In this document: positions 2,796-34,943 of the stretch, piece by piece
How the letters are laid out: each line of letters starts with the position of its first letter
Position numbering within the stretch: position 1 is the stretch's first letter
Sequence record: OZ035819.1
Reading direction: 5' to 3' (one strand)
Length of the DNA: 43,420 nt
From: Kagunavirus LM02P1
Translations under genes and position numbers: made by a program
The notes under the pieces: model-generated
Seen by the model: only the letters and a program-made list of their open reading frames with translations
What the model was told of the DNA's origin: nothing
Database searches by the model: none

Positions 2796-3872
2796 ATGCT
2801 ATTAACTTTAGCGCCACAGGGTTTATTTATGAGCTTACTGACATCACTAATCAGCCACCAGATTTGGCTGCAACGCAACGCATCTGGCGAAGTGAAAGAC
2901 CTCGCACCGTTCATTCAGGAGATGCGGGATGAAATCAAACGGCAGGTGCTGTTGTTCGGCGACGACGGGAGAAGCACCGCGCGTCTCAATAAACTGTTAC
3001 GCGACTTAGAAGAAGCACTGACAGGGCTAGCCGGAGACTGGCAAACAAAGCTGACCGAAGACCTTAAGGAACTGGCAGCGTATGAGGCTGAGTGGAATGT
3101 GAAAACACTCACGGCTAACGTCAACGCTGAATTTGTTACCCCTACCGCTGAGCAGGTGTGGTCTGCAGCCGTGTTTCAACCGCTGGCGTTACGCGACAAG
3201 CCAGTTGATTTCACTAAGCTAATGGATGGCTGGGGTGAAACAGAAGTATCGCGACTGGTAACTGGTGTTAAGATGGGTTTCGTTCAAGGCCAAACCACAC
3301 GGCAGATTGTTAAAAATGTCGTTGGCGCTGGCGGACTGGCGGACATCTCTGAGCGCAACGCAGCTACGGTAACCCGCACCGCGCTGTCGCACATATCCAA
3401 CGAAGCACGCAACGAGACGTACCGTCAGAACGACGACATCATCGAGAAATATGAATGGGTATCGACGCTTGACAGCCGTACCAGTACGATTTGCAGAGCC
3501 AGGGACGGAATGACGTGGGAAATCGGTAAGGGGCCGATGCCCCCCGCCCATTTTGGCTGCCGAAGCACCACAGCACCTGTAATCAGTTCAGAATTCGACT
3601 TCCTCGATAAAGACGCAAAACGTGCAGCTAAGGGTGCGGACGGCGGAACTCAGGTAAGCGTGGACACCTCTTACTACGAGTTCCTAAAACAACAACCGGC
3701 ATGGTTTCAGGATGAAGCACTCGGTCCTGTTCGCGGTAAGATTTTCCGCAACAGCGGTATATCGCCGGAAGAGTTTCGCGTAATATCTGTAGATGGTTTC
3801 GGGAATCCGCTTACGCTTAAGCAGATGGCGGAACTCGATAAACGTGTTGCTGATTATCTGAAAGGGGAATAA
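2796..3872 (+). CDS. head morphogenesis protein (Mu F / SPP1 gp7-like minor capsid protein)
   Basis: 358 aa; conserved stretch WVSTLDSRTSTICRARDGMTWEI...PPAHFGCRS typical of this family; follows portal; alternative ATG at 2829. Confidence 0.75.
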   Translation: MLLTLAPQGLFMSLLTSLISHQIWLQRNASGEVKDLAPFIQEMRDEIKRQVLLFGDDGRSTARLNKLLRDLEEALTGLAGDWQTKLTEDLKELAAYEAEWNVKTLTANVNAEFVTPTAEQVWSAAVFQPLALRDKPVDFTKLMDGWGETEVSRLVTGVKMGFVQGQTTRQIVKNVVGAGGLADISERNAATVTRTALSHISNEARNETYRQNDDIIEKYEWVSTLDSRTSTICRARDGMTWEIGKGPMPPAHFGCRSTTAPVISSEFDFLDKDAKRAAKGADGGTQVSVDTSYYEFLKQQPAWFQDEALGPVRGKIFRNSGISPEEFRVISVDGFGNPLTLKQMAELDKRVADYLKGE

Positions 3873-5519: not shown

Positions 5520-5601
5520 TTGCCTTGCATGTTGGAATAATTTATTCTTGACATGTAAATCCGGGTGGCCCGGGTTCCAACGTCCAGGGGACATACTGAC
5601 T

Positions 5602-6303
5602 ATGAATCGTTTTTTACGTTATCCGTTCCAGGAAGAAGCTGGAGCAGAAGATAAATCAGGTGGCGGTGACGCTCCTAAAATGTACACAGCCGAAGAAGTT
5701 CAGGCGCTGATTGAGAAAGAAGTTGCCGGGCTTAAGGCCAATCAGGAAGCATTGCTGGCGGAGAAGAAAGAAGCCGCTCGCAAAGCAAAAGAGGCCGAAG
5801 AAGAACGGCAGCGCGCACACCAGGAGGCACTAAAAGCCGCTGGTAAGATGGATGAGTTCGAAAAGACGATTCGTAGCCAGTATGACCCGGTGTTAGCTGA
5901 GAAAGACGGTCGCATCTCCAGAATGGCAGAGCGCATCCTCGGCAGCGAACGTAAAGCGGTGTTAGGCTCTTTCGCGGGTGACTTCATTACCCCCGAAGCA
6001 GTAGACATTCTTGCGCCGTTCGTTAAGACTGAGTTTGAAGGTGATGATGTGGTTACTAAGTTTGTCGGCGCAGATGGCAACGTAATCACGACTGACCCGG
6101 AACAGTTCCGCAAATACCTGCGTGAACACAAAGCGTTTTCGCATTTGATTAAAGCAAATGCAGCTTCCGGCGGCGGGGCTTCCGGCGGCAAAGGCGGCGG
6201 GGCCGCACCAGCGTTTAAAGATATGAACGAAGCGGAGCGTTTAGCTCTGTACAAATCGAACCCTGCCGAATTTGAACGGCAACTTAAAGCCCTGAGGAAA
6301 TAA
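5602..6303 (+). CDS. scaffolding protein
   Basis: Coiled-coil, E/K/A-rich sequence immediately upstream of major capsid gene; ATG at 5602 chosen, frame is open from 5548. Confidence 0.55.
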   Translation: MNRFLRYPFQEEAGAEDKSGGGDAPKMYTAEEVQALIEKEVAGLKANQEALLAEKKEAARKAKEAEEERQRAHQEALKAAGKMDEFEKTIRSQYDPVLAEKDGRISRMAERILGSERKAVLGSFAGDFITPEAVDILAPFVKTEFEGDDVVTKFVGADGNVITTDPEQFRKYLREHKAFSHLIKANAASGGGASGGKGGGAAPAFKDMNEAERLALYKSNPAEFERQLKALRK

Positions 6304-28820: not shown

Positions 28821-29447
28821 TTAACGGCGGCGACGTTCGCGGCGCGGTGCGTCATCTTCTTCGTCGTCTTCCAGGTCATTGACGCTTGCAGCGACTTTAG
28901 AACCGCCAAACGCTTTACCTTCGCCGACGTATTTAATCGCCAACAGGTTAACTCCGAGGACTTTGTATTTCTGGCTGAACCAGATTTCTACGCTTACGTT
29001 AGCAACGCAGCCGCTGTAAACCTGTTCGCCTTCAATCTGTTCGCCGTCTACGTTGAAGTCCTGCTCTACCTGAGTCTCACCTTTTTTAGAGGTTACAATC
29101 AGTGGCTGTTTCTGTGCTTTCGCTTTGAAGTAGAAGCCTTCCGGGAAGTCTTCAAACGGATTGTCGCGCTCGGCAATGTCTTTAATAGCGCATTTATCCA
29201 TGTGCTTACCTTCGCCGTAGTTGGACTTCATCCATTTCTCGGCAGCAGCTGCGCCTAACGCCTCTTCAACTACAGCGTAAACCGTGTCGTAGAGTGCGTC
29301 GATTTGAGCATGGTCGGACGGCAGGATAATAGTTGCGCTGTACTGGCCTTTAGTGATTGAGCCATCATCGTTTTCACGGTCTTTTTCGCGTTCGAATACG
29401 TTAACCCAAGCAGTGTTTACTTTACGCAGATTTAATTTCAGTCCCAT
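28821..29447 (-). CDS. single-strand DNA-binding protein (DUF2815-like)
   Basis: 208 aa with acidic C-terminal tail DLEDDEEDD typical of SSB; own near-consensus promoter; adjacent to DUF2800-like nuclease. Confidence 0.55.
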   Translation of the reverse strand: MGLKLNLRKVNTAWVNVFEREKDRENDDGSITKGQYSATIILPSDHAQIDALYDTVYAVVEEALGAAAAEKWMKSNYGEGKHMDKCAIKDIAERDNPFEDFPEGFYFKAKAQKQPLIVTSKKGETQVEQDFNVDGEQIEGEQVYSGCVANVSVEIWFSQKYKVLGVNLLAIKYVGEGKAFGGSKVAASVNDLEDDEEDDAPRRERRRR

Positions 29448-29499
29448 TTGATTTCTCGCTTTTCAGTTTACTCCGGGAACTGCCCGGCCAGTGATTAGA

Positions 29500-29528
29500 A
29501 ATATAATAGCTAACTATTCAGGTGTCAA
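29500..29528 (-). promoter_or_regulatory. sigma70-type promoter TTGACA-N17-TATATT for SSB gene
   Basis: Near-consensus hexamers read on minus strand, ~50 nt upstream of the ATG at 29447. Confidence 0.6.
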
Positions 29529-29791
29529 CCCTTCCATCCAGTTATTTTCTCAACTATCAATACGTATTCGAAAGGCCACTCCAAATTCTGCACCCATTTA
29601 ATTTCCTTCGTCTGGTCCAGTTGCTCGGGGTCTACCGTTTCATACTTAATCGCAACGTAGACCGTTAGTGGAAGAAGGATAATTAGAAGCGGCACTAACA
29701 TTGCCCAGTAACAAACAAATGCCACAAACCCGCCAAATACCCTGAACGTTTTACGAATCATTTCAAATCCTCCTCTGTTACCCGATTCCAC
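29525..29791 (-). CDS. small membrane protein
   Basis: Hydrophobic segment FVAFVCYWAMLVPLLIILLPLTVYVAI; start uncertain (overlaps nuclease gene end). Confidence 0.35.
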   Translation of the reverse strand: MESGNRGGFEMIRKTFRVFGGFVAFVCYWAMLVPLLIILLPLTVYVAIKYETVDPEQLDQTKEIKWVQNLEWPFEYVLIVEKITGWKG

Positions 29792-30999
29792 TCAGGCCGT
29801 TTGTCGTCTGCCGTTGCAACGCATGGTGCGCCTGGCTTACGGGTGATGAAGTCTTTCAGTTCTTCTTCCGGTATTACTTTAACCGCTTCGGTAGGGGTCA
29901 TGAGCACTTCTTTAGTCAGCTTGTCGCCGTAGAGTTCTGCCACTTTCTCTGCGTCTTTCCACGCACGATTACCCGGCCTGCCTTCAACCAACTTGTACCC
30001 CGGCACTTTCTTACCGGAATGCAAAGCGGCGGCCATAGCTTTCTCAACCTTGTCGATGTGCTGGCGCAACAACGGCAACTTCTCATACTCAGATACGAGT
30101 TGCTCCGGCGTAAGTTCCAGTGCAAAGTCATCTTCCAGTTCTCCGGCCAGTACCGAATTAACGGTTTTTGTACGCGCGGCGCACTGTTCAGAGAACCGGC
30201 ACCACTGACAGCCATCGACCGACGGCCTGAAGTCCGACGCCTTCAGGTTCTTCTTACCGCGGAAATAGGCATCAAGAGCCAACAGCGCGCGTTTCTGGGC
30301 AAACTTAGCGAACAGCTCCAGCCCCTCAGCCGAGATGTCCCACTCCGACGCGCCACCCGCGTACGGCTGGAAGATAACCAGGCGAACTGTTGTTATGTGA
30401 TAACGTCTCTTGAGTCGGCGATAAACACCGAGAGCATAGAGCATAAGCTGTTTGTTTTCTTTCGCTTCGACACGATGCCGCCCTGTTTTAAGGTCGCCAA
30501 TAATTAGCATGTGCTCGTCTGTGTTCGCCAGCTCCTGGACGGCAACAAGGTCGGCGGTTCCGAATGTCTCGACGCCTTCGTAACCTGGATGCAGCACCTC
30601 AGTAAGATTGACGCGCATCTCCAGTTTTGCGTAAGTAGCCACGTCGATAATCGCTTTGCAGTAGTCGGTGTACTTTGTACACTGGTCAATCATGTCCGCC
30701 GTAATAAGTACCGCGCCTTTCATCGGACTGATTAGCGCCTTAATCTGGCCTTTACCCTCATCCAGTACATATGCACCTACTTCACGTGCTAACGGTAGCG
30801 CAGTTCCGCGGATATAGGCATTTAGGTGCACTTCTGCGATTGTATGACATGCGGTCCCTGTAACGGCAGCTTTACCCGATTCGTTAGGAATGTCTTTTTC
30901 ACACGCCAGTGATGCGGCACAGGTAAGCCACTTTTTAGCACCTGATGGCGACAGTAAGGCGTGCACATCGTTATTGCCGCCGCGTTCTTTTAAAATCAT
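29758..30999 (-). CDS. PD-(D/E)XK nuclease, DUF2800/Cas4-like
   Basis: 413 aa; N-terminal LSPSGAKKWLTCAAS motif as I recall for this family; sits between SSB and primase as in many phage replication modules. Confidence 0.55.
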   Translation of the reverse strand: MILKERGGNNDVHALLSPSGAKKWLTCAASLACEKDIPNESGKAAVTGTACHTIAEVHLNAYIRGTALPLAREVGAYVLDEGKGQIKALISPMKGAVLITADMIDQCTKYTDYCKAIIDVATYAKLEMRVNLTEVLHPGYEGVETFGTADLVAVQELANTDEHMLIIGDLKTGRHRVEAKENKQLMLYALGVYRRLKRRYHITTVRLVIFQPYAGGASEWDISAEGLELFAKFAQKRALLALDAYFRGKKNLKASDFRPSVDGCQWCRFSEQCAARTKTVNSVLAGELEDDFALELTPEQLVSEYEKLPLLRQHIDKVEKAMAAALHSGKKVPGYKLVEGRPGNRAWKDAEKVAELYGDKLTKEVLMTPTEAVKVIPEEELKDFITRKPGAPCVATADDKRPEWNRVTEEDLK

Positions 31000-31493
31000 T
31001 TCTCGGCTCCGTTAACTGTAAACCCGTATTTAATTTCGGCTTGCCTACGAGCCTTAGCCGCGTTCTCTAACCTATCGTAAGCACCTAAATAAATTGGCGC
31101 CCCATCTACATAAATTCTGGCGACCCACTTACCAGAGCGTTTATGAAACCCAACGCCTTTAACACCTGAAGCATTGTCAGTCCGTATTTTGGTGCCGTGG
31201 GCGATACTACCTCGTCGCATTTTTATAAGATTTTCTATTCTGTTATCAGTTCTATCTTTATTTGCGTGGCGAATTACTTCCCCTGGCGCTATCTCCCCAT
31301 TAAACATCTCCCAAACCACGTGGTGGATAAGTTTAGTAACCCCGTTAAAACGTAGTATTTTGAATTCACTTCCGTCGTTATCCACCCTCACACTCCCAGC
31401 TTCTTGGCCTATTTTTACCGATTTTGATGGTCTTATCTTCCAATACAATTTCCCTGTGACAGGGTCGTAGTCAAACAGTTCATGCCAATTCAT
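30996..31493 (-). CDS. HNH homing endonuclease with C-terminal AP2 DNA-binding domain
   Basis: HNH region HHVVWEMFNG...IRHANKDRTDNRIENL; AP2-like region GVKGVGFHKRSGKWVARIYVDG; ATG at 31493 with GGGAGG RBS; locally AT-rich by eye. Confidence 0.7.
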   Translation of the reverse strand: MNWHELFDYDPVTGKLYWKIRPSKSVKIGQEAGSVRVDNDGSEFKILRFNGVTKLIHHVVWEMFNGEIAPGEVIRHANKDRTDNRIENLIKMRRGSIAHGTKIRTDNASGVKGVGFHKRSGKWVARIYVDGAPIYLGAYDRLENAAKARRQAEIKYGFTVNGAEK

Positions 31494-31762
31494 ACCCTGA
31501 CCTCCCACTGGTCGATTAAATGCCGTGTCTTATGGTCACAATGCATCGCCCAGCTATACATCGACTCGAAGACATAAAAGTCACTTTTAACGAAAGTCGT
31601 GCGCTTAATCTGCGACAGGTGACGGCCTATATCTTTCGGCTTTGGTACTTTGCCTAAGAACGCCATCTCTTCCATCTGGTGCGCACCCGACGGCGCACGT
31701 AACAGCCACAACACCTCTGTGTTATCCCGGCGGTCGATGCCGCGGTAGAGTTGGTAAATCAT
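31490..31762 (-). CDS. hypothetical protein (90 aa)
   Basis: Stop overlaps HNH start (ATGA coupling). Confidence 0.4.
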   Translation of the reverse strand: MIYQLYRGIDRRDNTEVLWLLRAPSGAHQMEEMAFLGKVPKPKDIGRHLSQIKRTTFVKSDFYVFESMYSWAMHCDHKTRHLIDQWEVRV

Positions 31763-31804
31763 ATTCCGGCCCTCTGTTAAAGCGGCCCGAAGGCCGCAGG
31801 TAAA

Positions 31805-32317
31805 TTATTCTTCTTCGAAATACTTGTTCTTAATCGCCGTCAGACGTTCCAGGTATTCAGCCAGGTCTTCGTCTTTAATCGCGGCAATCTTCATCTTCTT
31901 GCCGGTGAACTCTTCCAGCAGTTCATCGGAATCGTCACACGCGGCATCGCTCGGACCCTCGTTAATCGCATCGTCGATAGCCTGAATCTGGTCGCGCAGA
32001 GACTGGTAATCGACTTCTTCCGGCTCTGGCGTCGGCGCATCTACAGGTTTAGGGGCTGGTTTTGATTTGCCAGGCTTGCGTTTAGGCTTTTCTTCTTCTG
32101 CCGGTTTAGTGTCAACGAGGTCTTCACCTTCAACCGGGATTTCTTTCCCGATGCCAGTGCCTGGGTCGACTTCAAGCACCTCTCCAGTAACCGATACATC
32201 TACAAGCATTTCACCTACATGCTCAGTTGGCGGCACCGGTCGTTTCGCGCTATTCGCAGCAATCAGTTCATGCGCAACTACGAAACGTTCCAGTAATTTT
32301 AAAAATTGGTCTAACAT
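31805..32317 (-). CDS. acidic hypothetical protein (170 aa)
   Basis: ATG at 32317; Pro/Lys-rich linker and strongly acidic C-terminal half; preceded by conserved leader and promoter. Confidence 0.45.
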   Translation of the reverse strand: MLDQFLKLLERFVVAHELIAANSAKRPVPPTEHVGEMLVDVSVTGEVLEVDPGTGIGKEIPVEGEDLVDTKPAEEEKPKRKPGKSKPAPKPVDAPTPEPEEVDYQSLRDQIQAIDDAINEGPSDAACDDSDELLEEFTGKKMKIAAIKDEDLAEYLERLTAIKNKYFEEE

Positions 32318-32348
32318 TTGTTTCTCTCCTCTCGTTTGGTATGGGCTA

Positions 32349-32378
32349 ACTATAATAGCTAACTATTCATGATGTCAA
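32349..32378 (-). promoter_or_regulatory. sigma70-type promoter TTGACA-N18-TATAGT for 31805..32317
   Basis: Read on minus strand; leader 32318-32348 shares 15-nt AAACGAGAGGAGAGA with the leader at 37094-37122. Confidence 0.5.
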
Positions 32379-32442
32379 TGGGCTTTTCTAAAATAATTAA
32401 TATGGTACTATTCACATATCAACTAACTAAGGAGTAATTGAC

Positions 32443-32658
32443 ATGCAACCATCTGAACTAGGCATCCGTGTAGAGCAACGCCGCAAAGAACTCGGCATCT
32501 CCCAGCGCCGTCTGGCTGTCCTGGCCGGTGTTTCTCAGGGAGCGATTAACCAGCTGGCACTTGGAGTAACTCAGGACGTCCGACCGGCGACGCTGTTTAA
32601 ACTGGCGGAAGTGCTGGAAGTAGACGCCAAGTGGCTGGCGTTCGGTGAAGGGGCTTAA
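32443..32658 (+). CDS. XRE-family helix-turn-helix transcriptional regulator
   Basis: 71 aa; HTH LGISQRRLAVLAGVSQGAINQLALG; RBS AAGGAG; only + strand gene inside the - strand replication module. Confidence 0.7.
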   Translation: MQPSELGIRVEQRRKELGISQRRLAVLAGVSQGAINQLALGVTQDVRPATLFKLAEVLEVDAKWLAFGEGA

Positions 32659-32673
32659 CGCCCCTTTCTTTTT
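32648..32673. terminator. bidirectional intrinsic terminator
   Basis: Hairpin AGGGGC-ttaac-GCCCCT followed by TTCTTTTT; overlaps XRE stop; primase stop at 32676. Confidence 0.6.
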
Positions 32674-32675
32674 AT

Positions 32676-34943
32676 CTATTCCAAATCTTCCTCTGTCACT
32701 GTCAGCATTTCATTCGGTTCGTATATTGTCTTCGGAATCTTGTTATCCGTTATTCGGGTGTTCAGCCTGTAACGGCCTGGAATTATCTGATTGTTTTCGT
32801 CGGTCCCTGGCACAAGATAACCCGCCTCAACCATTTTCTTAATCTTCCCACGTTCTATGGCTTCTTTGGAGTTAAACGCCTTTGCGTTAGGGTCGGACTG
32901 TGCGAGCTTATTTGCCGCAGCTACTGTGATACCTTCGTTGCCATTGTAGGTTCCTTCCGCCAGTTCAAACGCCGCCAGTATCGTGGCCTCCGAACTGTTG
33001 ACGGCGTTCTCTACGGTTTTACGTACGTTTTCTTTACCTTCCTTTGTCAGCCCTTCTTCCCGCTCTTTCTCCTCATCGGTCTTGAATGGCTCGAATCCCC
33101 AAGGCATCAATACAAGCGCCTTGTGCGGTTCAGGCAGGTCGAGGTTTACGATTGTGCCGTATTCCTCGGTGGAACCGAGGAACTCAACCGCGCGGTACTC
33201 TTTCGGCGGAGGTGCTTCACGGAACTGTACCGACTCCAGCACCATGCCAACCGTCTTCTGTTGGGGGCCGTGCTTAAATTTCGAGTGGTATACGTTTATC
33301 TGACGGTCGGTTGCACGTTCGATTGTCAGTTCCACGTCGACACCCGCATACAGCGCCCCGCTGCCACGGGCTTTCTTTCCGCCCTTCGGGGTATGGTGGA
33401 CAACGCCTACCGCAGCTTTAGTCGCGTCGCGTACTTCTTTCAGGATGGCGATAACTTTACCCATACCGATCGCCGTTGATGAACTGTTCTCGTCGAACTT
33501 ATCAATCGTCAGGGCCAGCGTCTGGTTGAGTGTGTCGAACGCAACCATACCAATTGGCTCGTCGCCTGCAGTTTCGCGCATCAACTTAATCAGGTTTTTC
33601 AGTTTGCCGACTTCGCCCATGTCGATGACATGTACGTAATCTTTACCTTCCTCGCCATATTTAGCGGCTAGTGCATCAATACGGGTGCGTGTAGCGGCAC
33701 CGCCCTCGCCATCGATATAGAAATGGTGGCAACGCTGGGTATCCGCCCCCGCAAACCGGTATCCGGCGGCGCTGAGGTACATCATCCCCAGCGTATAGAA
33801 CGATTTGTACGTACCTGATTCCCCGACAATATCCCAGATACAATCTGACGGCATGTACCCTTCAACGACGAAATCCGCCTTTACTGGTTCTGGTAGCTCG
33901 TCCTCCTCTGAGTCATCATTGTCTTCCAGGTCGTCGAGGCTGCATGAAACTGATTCACGCGCACCCCAGCCGATAGCCTCTGCGACTTCACTGAATGGCA
34001 GCCCTGTAGCGTCACACGCATACTTCCACACCTCTTTCGGCGACATGCCCTCGGTTGCCGTGATGTCGGTGTCGTGAATCATGGTTACGTTAGGCGCTTC
34101 GTATCCCTCGCGCGGGAAGCACAACAGGAAGTCGTCCGGGCGTGGAGTCGGGTCGCTATAGTTTTCGGCGTGTTCTGGTGTGGCGGGCATCTTAAGGCCG
34201 CGTGGCGTCAAGATGCCGCCGTGCTCGAAGGCCAGTGCTTCAAACGCATCGGTAAACGCAGTGCGCAGTTCTTCCGGTATCTGGTAATCCGATGCGCTGC
34301 TCACCTCGTAATCCGGGATGCCTTCCAGTAACTCGCCGGGGTCAATCAGGTCATTGCGGCGCGACCAGATAACCTGAGAGCCAACCGGCGGCAGGTACAT
34401 CGGCTGGGACAGAGTAAACCCGCTGCGGTCCGCGCCCATGCCTTTGAAGAAGTGCTCCAGCAACCCGTGACGTACGCGGATGATGTCACCGCCTTCGACC
34501 GGGCGGGCCAGCGGCATGACGACGCGAAAGCGTGGAGACTCATCGGTATGGGATGCCGTGGTGTAAACGCACATGGCTTTACGGCCTCGCTTAACCAGGC
34601 GCACTGCTTCCTGGTACTCTTCCGGCGTTGCGCTGTCGAAGTCAAGATACGCCAGTGACGATTTGGTTACAGACGCGTCACAGCGATAGAAGAAGCCTTT
34701 ACGCGCATGCTTAAAGTCACCTGTTTCCGGGTCTTTTACGGTGCTGTGCGTTGAGTCGCACGCGGCAGTGATATACCCCGGCGCTGTCTTAGGGTTAATC
34801 CCGTCATGAACAGCATCAAGCGGCTGGATTAACTCTTTCAGGTCGTCCAGTGTTGCCGTATGTGTGGTTCTGACGTTTATATCCTTTTTCTCCGCCCGCG
34901 CGTTGCGACGGGACCACGAGTAGGATAAAATTACATCGGACAT
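32676..34943 (-). CDS. bifunctional primase-polymerase (AEP) / P-loop helicase
   Basis: 755 aa; AEP motifs AYLDFD and TTASHTDESPRFRVVMP; C-terminal Walker A GESGTYKS, Walker B-like MVAFD. Confidence 0.75.
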   Translation of the reverse strand: MSDVILSYSWSRRNARAEKKDINVRTTHTATLDDLKELIQPLDAVHDGINPKTAPGYITAACDSTHSTVKDPETGDFKHARKGFFYRCDASVTKSSLAYLDFDSATPEEYQEAVRLVKRGRKAMCVYTTASHTDESPRFRVVMPLARPVEGGDIIRVRHGLLEHFFKGMGADRSGFTLSQPMYLPPVGSQVIWSRRNDLIDPGELLEGIPDYEVSSASDYQIPEELRTAFTDAFEALAFEHGGILTPRGLKMPATPEHAENYSDPTPRPDDFLLCFPREGYEAPNVTMIHDTDITATEGMSPKEVWKYACDATGLPFSEVAEAIGWGARESVSCSLDDLEDNDDSEEDELPEPVKADFVVEGYMPSDCIWDIVGESGTYKSFYTLGMMYLSAAGYRFAGADTQRCHHFYIDGEGGAATRTRIDALAAKYGEEGKDYVHVIDMGEVGKLKNLIKLMRETAGDEPIGMVAFDTLNQTLALTIDKFDENSSSTAIGMGKVIAILKEVRDATKAAVGVVHHTPKGGKKARGSGALYAGVDVELTIERATDRQINVYHSKFKHGPQQKTVGMVLESVQFREAPPPKEYRAVEFLGSTEEYGTIVNLDLPEPHKALVLMPWGFEPFKTDEEKEREEGLTKEGKENVRKTVENAVNSSEATILAAFELAEGTYNGNEGITVAAANKLAQSDPNAKAFNSKEAIERGKIKKMVEAGYLVPGTDENNQIIPGRYRLNTRITDNKIPKTIYEPNEMLTVTEEDLE

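Follow-up and report, generated by a model that had tools for sequence, protein, structure and literature searches.

During the intronless homing of the phage T4 seg and mob genes, a break is made in a co-infecting genome that lacks the cassette, and the flanks of the cassette are co-converted along with it. Here, we describe the HNH-AP2 gene of Kagunavirus LM02P1 (record OZ035819.1), the whole 43,420-nucleotide (nt) stretch of which is referred to below as the window; it is predicted to encode an HNH endonuclease with a C-terminal AP2 DNA-binding domain, and the allele carried here is called W-type to set it apart from its sister alleles in related phages. Like seg and mob, the W-type gene is a free-standing endonuclease gene placed between conserved genes, but while the T4 enzymes belong to the GIY-YIG or to other HNH types and have been demonstrated to cleave, the W-type protein is known here from sequence alone; the intronless homing of the T4 genes is discussed in PMC10448857.

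A second point of comparison is I-HmuI from the Bacillus phage SPO1 (PDB 1u3e), an HNH nicking homing endonuclease that is intron-encoded, whereas the W-type gene stands free, and whose C-terminal part is a helical, helix-turn-helix DNA-binding region in place of the AP2 domain. The two also differ in the catalytic centre, where I-HmuI has Asp74 and Asn96, and the W-type protein has Arg75 and Ile97. The two I-HmuI residues are reportedly metal ligands, as Shen et al. are said to have described in 2004.

Free-standing HNN-AP2 endonuclease genes are an established class in phages (PMC2248197; PMC10448857; PMC5714182, group 2), for which PMC10448857 cites Magnani et al. 2004. Genes of this class are, like the W-type, free-standing and optional, they sit at variable positions and their relatives hold degenerate copies; those of the Xanthomonas phages Xp10, OP1 and Xop411 (PMC2248197) also share with the W-type the HNN-then-AP2 order and the boxes HR..W, DNR and NL. 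The Xanthomonas-phage genes, however, keep the Asp/His and an ‘EN’ box, whereas the W-type lineage is without the Asp and the EN box, and HNN-AP2 genes elsewhere are scattered, while at the present locus the insertion point is fixed and common to several diverged alleles. As a gene, the W-type is ordinary, HNH-AP2 free-standing endonuclease genes being common in phages; the kind of gene is known and the allele has already been deposited, and the variant feature is an altered catalytic centre in a gene that is single-domain, selected and patchily distributed.

An optional cassette at a gene junction

The HNH-AP2 gene occupies positions 30996..31493 of the minus strand, running from an ATG at 31493 to a TGA ending at 30996, and encodes 165 amino acids (aa); the listing of open reading frames (ORFs) begins it further upstream, with the GTG at 31508. 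Its start overlaps the stop of a 90-aa ORF in the ATGA at 31490..31493, and its stop overlaps the start of an exonuclease gene in the ATGA at 30996..30999, both on the minus strand. A preliminary description of this DNA had placed the gene between a DUF2800-like nuclease and the 90-aa ORF with ATGA at both ends, which is what we find, but its interval of 30996–31762 has the wrong right-hand coordinate, the 90-aa ORF (31490..31762, minus strand, in another frame) having been taken in. The same description called the stretch AT-rich, and the gene does have a GC content of 43.6% against 50.6% for the window, which puts it at the 2.7th percentile among all 498-nt windows, and a GC content at third codon positions (GC3) of 0.40, with values of 0.56–0.65 in the neighbouring genes; by composition, the gene is foreign. 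No second copy is found in the window with tblastn, and no Rfam match at E≤0.1 on either strand of 29000–33000.

The window is 87–90% identical to K1G-like E. coli phages of the genus Kagunavirus (Guernseyvirinae), and its phage is itself a Kagunavirus-like, K1G-like E. coli phage. Relatives were sampled as the 447 phage records in GenBank that match window 29500–33000. The W-type allele is present in three of them at about 89% nucleotide identity, and these three records stand for two phages, namely EcoPhCCP1, where the gene is annotated as ‘HNH endonuclease’, and ZCEC5, deposited twice, where it is a ‘hypothetical protein’. K1G and K1H are without the gene, their 90-aa ORF being joined straight to the exonuclease gene by an ATGA. 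Occupied and empty junctions differ by exactly 494 bp with ATGA at both ends (the boundaries of the cassette are ambiguous by this repeated 4-nt sequence), and the empty site of NTEC3 equals the window minus these 494 bp, with identity throughout −20..+41; the empty junction of K1G or NTEC3 reads ...GACCAGTGGGAGGTCAGGGTATGATTTTAAAAGAACGCGGCGGCAATAACG.... The contrary picture raised in the preliminary description, of a gene universal at this position and devoid of HNH catalytic residues, does not apply.

Three more W-type copies at the same junction come from metagenomes, one on a Logan contig (96% identical at the amino acid level) and two on IMG/VR contigs, and a strict empty-site pattern returns 14 IMG/VR contigs, several of which share a metagenome with occupied ones. 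The W-type carriers are not the closest relatives of the window phage, and in the comparison with one contig (L015) the W-type gene is 94–96% identical where the flanks are mostly at 75–93%, which hints that the cassette may have been shared more recently than its flanks. The optional status and the mobility of the HNH-AP2 cassette are well supported. A transposon or insertion sequence was considered and ruled out, there being no terminal inverted repeats and no target-site duplication, only the ATGA that is part of the gene junctions.

The W-type ORF is intact in all six copies, and the ratio of nonsynonymous to synonymous substitution rates (dN/dS) among them is 0.08 in the N-terminal domain, 0.11 in the HNH domain and 0.15 in the AP2 domain, at a dS of about 0.3–0.4; with every ORF intact and dN/dS near 0.1 in all domains, the W-type protein is under selection. 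These values bear on the possibility that the cassette is a functionless passenger, shuffled by recombination at gene boundaries in the manner of other small ORFs found at this place in relatives. Many ATGA-linked cassettes do occur there, among them the 90-aa ORF itself, a 115-aa ORF, NinX fragments and a 54-aa ORF, as such shuffling would have it. We nevertheless consider the passenger explanation improbable, since dN/dS values this low over such a dS, with no ORF broken, argue for a selected function, and since the homing-family domains, together with co-conversion in a sister allele, point to an actively mobile family.

Domain architecture and family membership

The preliminary description had taken the gene for a free-standing HNH gene with a C-terminal AP2 domain, and Pfam recovers both parts. 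HNH_3 matches aa 55–90 of the W-type protein at 9.3e-14 (51.2 bits, cut-off 24.8), and AP2 (PF00847) matches aa 109–152 at 4.2e-6 with 27.4 bits, under the curated value of 33.3; in sequence and in fold, a three-stranded sheet packed on a helix, this region is that of an AP2 domain. The PHROG 99 family, ‘HNH endonuclease’, matches at 1e-50. A profile built from 12 family members and searched against the PDB finds the AP2 domain of WRI1 at 1.5e-10 and I-HmuI at 5.7e-5. With the single sequence, the PDB search gives, apart from AP2, only spurious matches to RNase H2B (E about 0.2), so that I-HmuI is reached only with the family profile.

Together, the Pfam, PHROG and profile matches describe an I-HmuI-like N-terminal sheet followed by an HNH core and a C-terminal AP2 domain, all encoded on the minus strand. 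The N-terminal beta-strand domain (31344..31493, aa 1–50, beginning MNWHELFDYDPxTGKLYWKI) is highly conserved in all four allele types found at the locus. The HNH_3 core (31224..31331, aa 55–90) keeps His76, Asn84 and Asn88 and has Arg75 for the usual Asp, and it is followed by the segment KMRRGSIAHG (31194..31223, aa 91–100), with Ile97 and His99, where relatives have the core helix with its metal-binding Asn. The AP2 DNA-binding domain fills aa 107–156 (31026..31175). A word-indexed homologue search returned 11 proteins only, whereas an exhaustive search returned more than 13,000 clusters at E≤1e-10, and within this large family the W-type lineage is a single cluster at 50% identity.

Sister alleles in a variable slot

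The preliminary description had expected a site of variation between relatives, and the slot that runs from the ‘13.88 kDa late protein’ gene to the exonuclease gene is indeed a hot spot, with alternative cassettes and four HNH-AP2 allele types in many arrangements. It holds nothing in SETP3, the 90-aa ORF alone in K1G, K1H and 590B, NinX fragments in Ivi and dunkel, and a 54-aa ORF in SS6. Three HNH-AP2 lineages other than the W-type occur there. The J-type (173 aa, 54–55% identical to the W-type) is full-length in 48 records, for example SE-W109, ER2 and SXAU_B4; the G-type (164 aa, 49% identical) in GZMU_E2010 takes the place of the 90-aa ORF, whose ribosome-binding region it uses; and the F-type of fBC-Eco01 (46% identical) has a frameshift within AP2. 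Like the W-type, these sister alleles lie directly upstream of the exonuclease gene, mostly with ATGA coupling, and their N-terminal 33 aa are near-identical to those of the W-type in proteins of 46–55% overall identity. They differ from it in having the canonical Asp-His and helix Asn with a full HNH_3 match, and in that the J-type and F-type are linked to divergent haplotypes of the exonuclease 5′ end, the J-type with co-conversion and deletion footprints, while no such block was found for the W-type.

Several details of individual records belong here. In fBC-Eco01 (L016, 2470–2965) the annotated 140-aa ‘HNH endonuclease’ is the frameshifted HNH-AP2 gene, and the rest of its AP2 domain (...FIGLGYFENKDDAVVARKNAEKELGFHKNHGAIK*) lies in another frame and ends as an ATGA overlap with the exonuclease start; the frameshift reflects either genuine decay of the gene or an error in sequencing. 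The distance from the stop of the 13.88 kDa gene to the HNH start in ER2 (L012) is about 76 nt, and of the 90-aa ORF this record retains only ‘ATGATT|GACCAG’, followed by a run of 12 G. In TUMS_E15 (L005, about 2900–3000) this short region, together with its hairpin and the 13.88 kDa gene end, appears inverted, with poly-C at the bounds, which is either a real inversion or a homopolymer assembly artefact.

The HNH genes of fBC-Eco01 have been proposed to be associated with packaging (PMC9825357), and the corresponding reading of the W-type would be a packaging-associated HNH protein that aids DNA cutting by terminase. This is highly improbable. The domain is of the HNH_3 or I-HmuI type and carries an AP2 domain, the gene sits in the replication module, away from terminase, and of 41 related records that span both flanks, taken as a spread sample, just five have any HNH gene in the slot, all five J-type, so that more than 85% are without one; because the HNH gene is optional among relatives, an essential packaging factor is impossible. 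A terminase-associated HNH protein of the HK97 gp74 type is likewise ruled out by position, domain type and optional distribution.

Signs of mobility are clearest for the J-type, which travels with a distinct haplotype of the exonuclease 5′ end, the 5′ 200 nt of that gene being the flank co-converted with the allele. The Kagunavirus SXAU_B4 has an exonuclease gene that is, over its first ~195 nt, 95–97% identical to Jerseyvirus carriers and 65–75% to Kagunaviruses, beyond which the identity switches to 89–94% with K1G; this initial stretch is a co-conversion tract across the genus boundary. Horsemountain has the J-type allele with just four codons of the J-linked exonuclease haplotype. What remains of the J-type gene in PST-H1 and in five other records is its last ~40 nt, fused to codon 14 of the 90-aa ORF, a remnant that is evidently a deletion footprint; in PST-H1, a Salmonella phage (L034), it lies at 831–950, where the 14 initial codons of the 90-aa ORF run into ~35 nt of J-type sequence, and the following exonuclease keeps the J-linked N-terminus (MTLKDKDRSGSND). 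The J-linked haplotype is, from nt 27 onward, also present in about 60 cassette-less Salmonella phages, and instead of purely hitch-hiking it may represent an allele that is ancestral or resistant. Because it is not exclusive to carriers, the argument for homing rests on the SXAU_B4 mosaic and the footprints. Taken together, the sister alleles show the full life cycle of a homing element, with cross-genus transfer, a frameshifted copy and deletion footprints.

A proposed homing cycle and the points that weigh against it

The favoured reading of the W-type gene, whose chances we put at about even, is that of a homing-family cassette still promoting its own spread by nicking or cutting DNA. The gene would be expressed from a promoter-like site (32378..32349) via translational coupling and, as the ATGA overlap is recreated on each side, it is predicted to be translated from the early replication operon with the coupling of the exonuclease gene unbroken. 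On co-infection with an empty-junction relative, the AP2 and N-terminal domains would bind DNA near the junction of the 90-aa ORF and the exonuclease gene, the W-type protein would then nick or cut the empty-junction DNA in I-HmuI fashion, and repair of the break off the cassette-bearing genome would copy the cassette in; the inserted cassette would split the target site and leave the carrier protected. In favour of this reading are the domain architecture, the precise and optional insertion, the foreign composition, the selection on an intact protein, the horizontal signal and the behaviour of the sister alleles.

The cutting step appears to be the weakest link of this scheme, as the W-type protein would have to act through a non-canonical site, perhaps with His99, or else its activity must be weak or lost, and its present nuclease activity is uncertain; the observations gathered in this and the following two paragraphs likewise weigh against homing. 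When the family profile is aligned with I-HmuI, ‘idH’ falls on V-D74-H75, ‘eNL’ on T-N87-L and ‘ssN’ on K-I-N96, and at these motifs the W-type protein has I-R75-H76, E-N88-L and S-I97. His76, the general base, aligns with I-HmuI His75 and is invariant in all alignments, and the structural Asn84 and Asn88 are invariant in the W-type copies. The position of Asp74, however, is taken by Arg75 in six of six W-type copies as against Asp in 120 of 149 relatives (drawn from the exhaustive homologue search), and that of Asn96 by Ile97 in all copies as against Asn in 118 of the 149. In His-Me nucleases the helix Asn or His is usually the sole direct metal ligand, and a D, E or H preceding the catalytic His is often a second (PMC5714182).

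Among ~106 single-domain relatives, defined by a motif scan as proteins with a single HNH core, both the Asp and the helix Asn are missing only from the W-type lineage and P0026, and the latter, with 559 aa, has two HNH_3 stretches by Pfam. Both residues are missing from the first domain in 21 of 39 tandem-HNH_3 proteins, the second being canonical in 36 of the 39. The HNH_3 match of the W-type protein covers profile positions 2–37 of 46, whereas those of the sister alleles cover 1–45. In the structure model of the W-type protein the helix after the strand at 89–93 is not confident, the predicted local distance difference test (pLDDT) falling below 50 at 98–102, whereas the J-type model has a helix at 100–104 and a pLDDT of 83 over the block 91–100. 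Many relatives of ~265 aa have tandem HNH_3 domains (P0043, P0055, P0068, P0075, P0091, P0097 and P0104), and from their sequences these look like a recurrent pair of a catalytic and a pseudo-catalytic domain.

The copies of the W-type are, moreover, old (dS 0.3–0.4) and rare. Neither the 90-aa ORF nor the 5′ end of the exonuclease gene yielded a block haplotype that separates the six W-type carriers from 18 empty-site genomes. The best association is with two synonymous sites in exonuclease codons 3–4 (CTA AAA versus TTA AAG), the second of which is present in 6/6 carriers and 4/18 empty-site genomes, with a hand-calculated Fisher p of about 0.002 before any correction for phylogeny or for the roughly 600 columns. 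Lastly, phiEc3 and dunkel hold a 115-aa ORF next to the 90-aa ORF in an identical junction, and since this non-nuclease cassette uses the same junction, homing is not required for variation at the site. The 115-aa ORF (phiEc3, L008, 1295–1642; dunkel, L011, 1297–1644) has 4-nt overlaps like those of the W-type gene and matches phrog_20588, of unknown function; it also has a weak, sub-threshold Pfam match to a phage ProQ C-terminal-like domain.

The active site and flanks give rise to the principal alternative, which we advance tentatively, that the W-type protein is a nuclease-dead, domesticated derivative that binds DNA sequence-specifically through the AP2 and N-terminal domains and is retained by selection in that role; it might keep the canonical sister endonucleases that co-infecting phages encode away from the exonuclease junction, or it might have a part in regulating the operon, and its only way of moving between phages would be ordinary homologous recombination within the conserved flanks. 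The loss of both metal-ligand positions from every copy, a state elsewhere confined to the first domain of tandem proteins, is what this alternative would predict, as are a core helix modelled poorly beside that of the J-type and strong purifying selection that includes the substituted segment RRGSIAHG, which is invariant, His99 with it, across the six copies. It would also account for the missing co-conversion signature, the carriers retaining the exonuclease 5′ sequence of empty sites, and for the rarity of the W-type beside the 48 full-length J-type records; AP2 domains that stem from homing endonucleases have, in other systems, been recruited to serve as DNA-binding silencers (CasPR preprint, 10.64898/2026.02.23.707548; PMC10448857). 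Yet the invariance of His76, Asn84 and Asn88, and a dN/dS in the HNH core equal to that in the other domains, speak against this alternative, as does the patchy distribution among non-sister genomes, with a gene more similar between genomes than its flanks. Some His-Me nucleases make do with a single protein metal ligand (PMC5714182), and His99, two residues past Ile97, might replace the missing ligand of the helix; alternatively, the guanidinium group of the Arg may stand in for the metal ion and make this a metal-independent His-Me nuclease.

Of the homing endonuclease proposed in the preliminary description, the family, the optional status and the foreign composition hold up, and the working nuclease is not fully supported, given the substitution of both metal-ligand positions and the want of a clear co-converted flank. 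A more specific form of the DNA-binding alternative, somewhat unlikely in our estimate, is that of a homing endonuclease without catalysis, retained as a site-specific DNA-binding protein and maybe blocking sister endonucleases at the junction; if true, the selfish element would itself have given rise to an immunity factor in the W-type. With its altered active site, the W-type occupies the same site as its canonical sisters and is under equally strong selection, and the comparison could show whether such elements become domesticated once cleavage is lost.

The locus is worth more than the gene, in that a single Guernseyvirinae junction holds four diverged alleles with gain, decay, loss and cross-genus co-conversion, and intronless homing could be studied there in a small, naturally occurring setting whose E. 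coli and Salmonella phages can be cultured. Those who compare phage genomes can also expect variation and recombination at this place, next to a recombination exonuclease gene.

Sequence around the junction

The 90-aa ORF of the window is closest to that of the cassette-less NTEC3 (97.8% identical at the amino acid level). At exonuclease nt ~90–200 (window 30800–30910) two alternative haplotype blocks occur, TGTACH or LGTAMH and NAYIRG or NQYIKG, and relatives show every combination of these whatever the state of the cassette, a mosaic that points to a probable local recombination hot spot. A GCC-box candidate, GCGGCGGC, lies at 30976–30983, 16 nt inside the exonuclease gene, and is destroyed in the haplotypes linked to the J-type and F-type. 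The 8-mer occurs seven times in the window against about three expected, and three of 100 shuffles reach seven; with such a count, and with the site also retained in W-type carriers, the GCC-box idea is only a lead.

Neighbouring genes and the operon

The exonuclease gene (29758..30999, minus strand) encodes a 413-aa DUF2800/PD-(D/E)XK exonuclease with a DUF2800 match at 4e-69. Upstream of the HNH-AP2 gene, the 90-aa ORF belongs to PHROG 4965, of unknown function, and is itself an accessory gene, present in 193 phage records. The ‘13.88 kDa late protein’ homologue (31805..32317, minus strand; PHROG 3127) forms the upstream boundary of the slot, and between it and the 90-aa ORF lies a GC-rich hairpin, GCGGCC-TTCG-GGCCGC on the coding strand (31782..31797), which is conserved at the slot start in relatives, including the otherwise empty slot of SETP3. 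A promoter-like site, TTGACA-18-TATAGT (32349..32378, minus strand), agrees with the consensus in 11 of 12 positions, a consensus match only, and is likely the promoter of a predicted operon of the 13.88 kDa, 90-aa, HNH and exonuclease genes; matching to the consensus finds no separate promoter directly ahead of the HNH-AP2 gene.

The exonuclease gene is followed immediately downstream, in the window, by an 88-aa ORF (29525–29791, minus strand) whose product has a hydrophobic stretch, and in place of this ORF Ivi (L010, 1–60) has a ‘putative HNH endonuclease’; because of this downstream HNH gene, endonuclease slots may flank the exonuclease gene on both sides in the subfamily. Further on, the gene for an Enc34-type single-stranded DNA-binding protein (28821–29447, minus strand; L001, 810–1439) is 94% identical in nucleotides to that of ZCEC5 and 66% to that of EcoPhCCP1, with adjoining genes at about 85%, and this looks like the swap of a whole-gene allele. 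Within the exonuclease gene of GZMU_E2010 (L007), ~100 nt at nt ~350–450 are 53–60% identical to other relatives and the rest 80–92%, so the stretch is apparently a local replacement or insertion. The DNA polymerase I of SE-W109 (L006, 5552–6504) is given as two adjacent coding sequences, one at 5552–5923 and one from 5938 onward, a split that may reflect a frameshift, an interruption of the gene or an error in sequencing.

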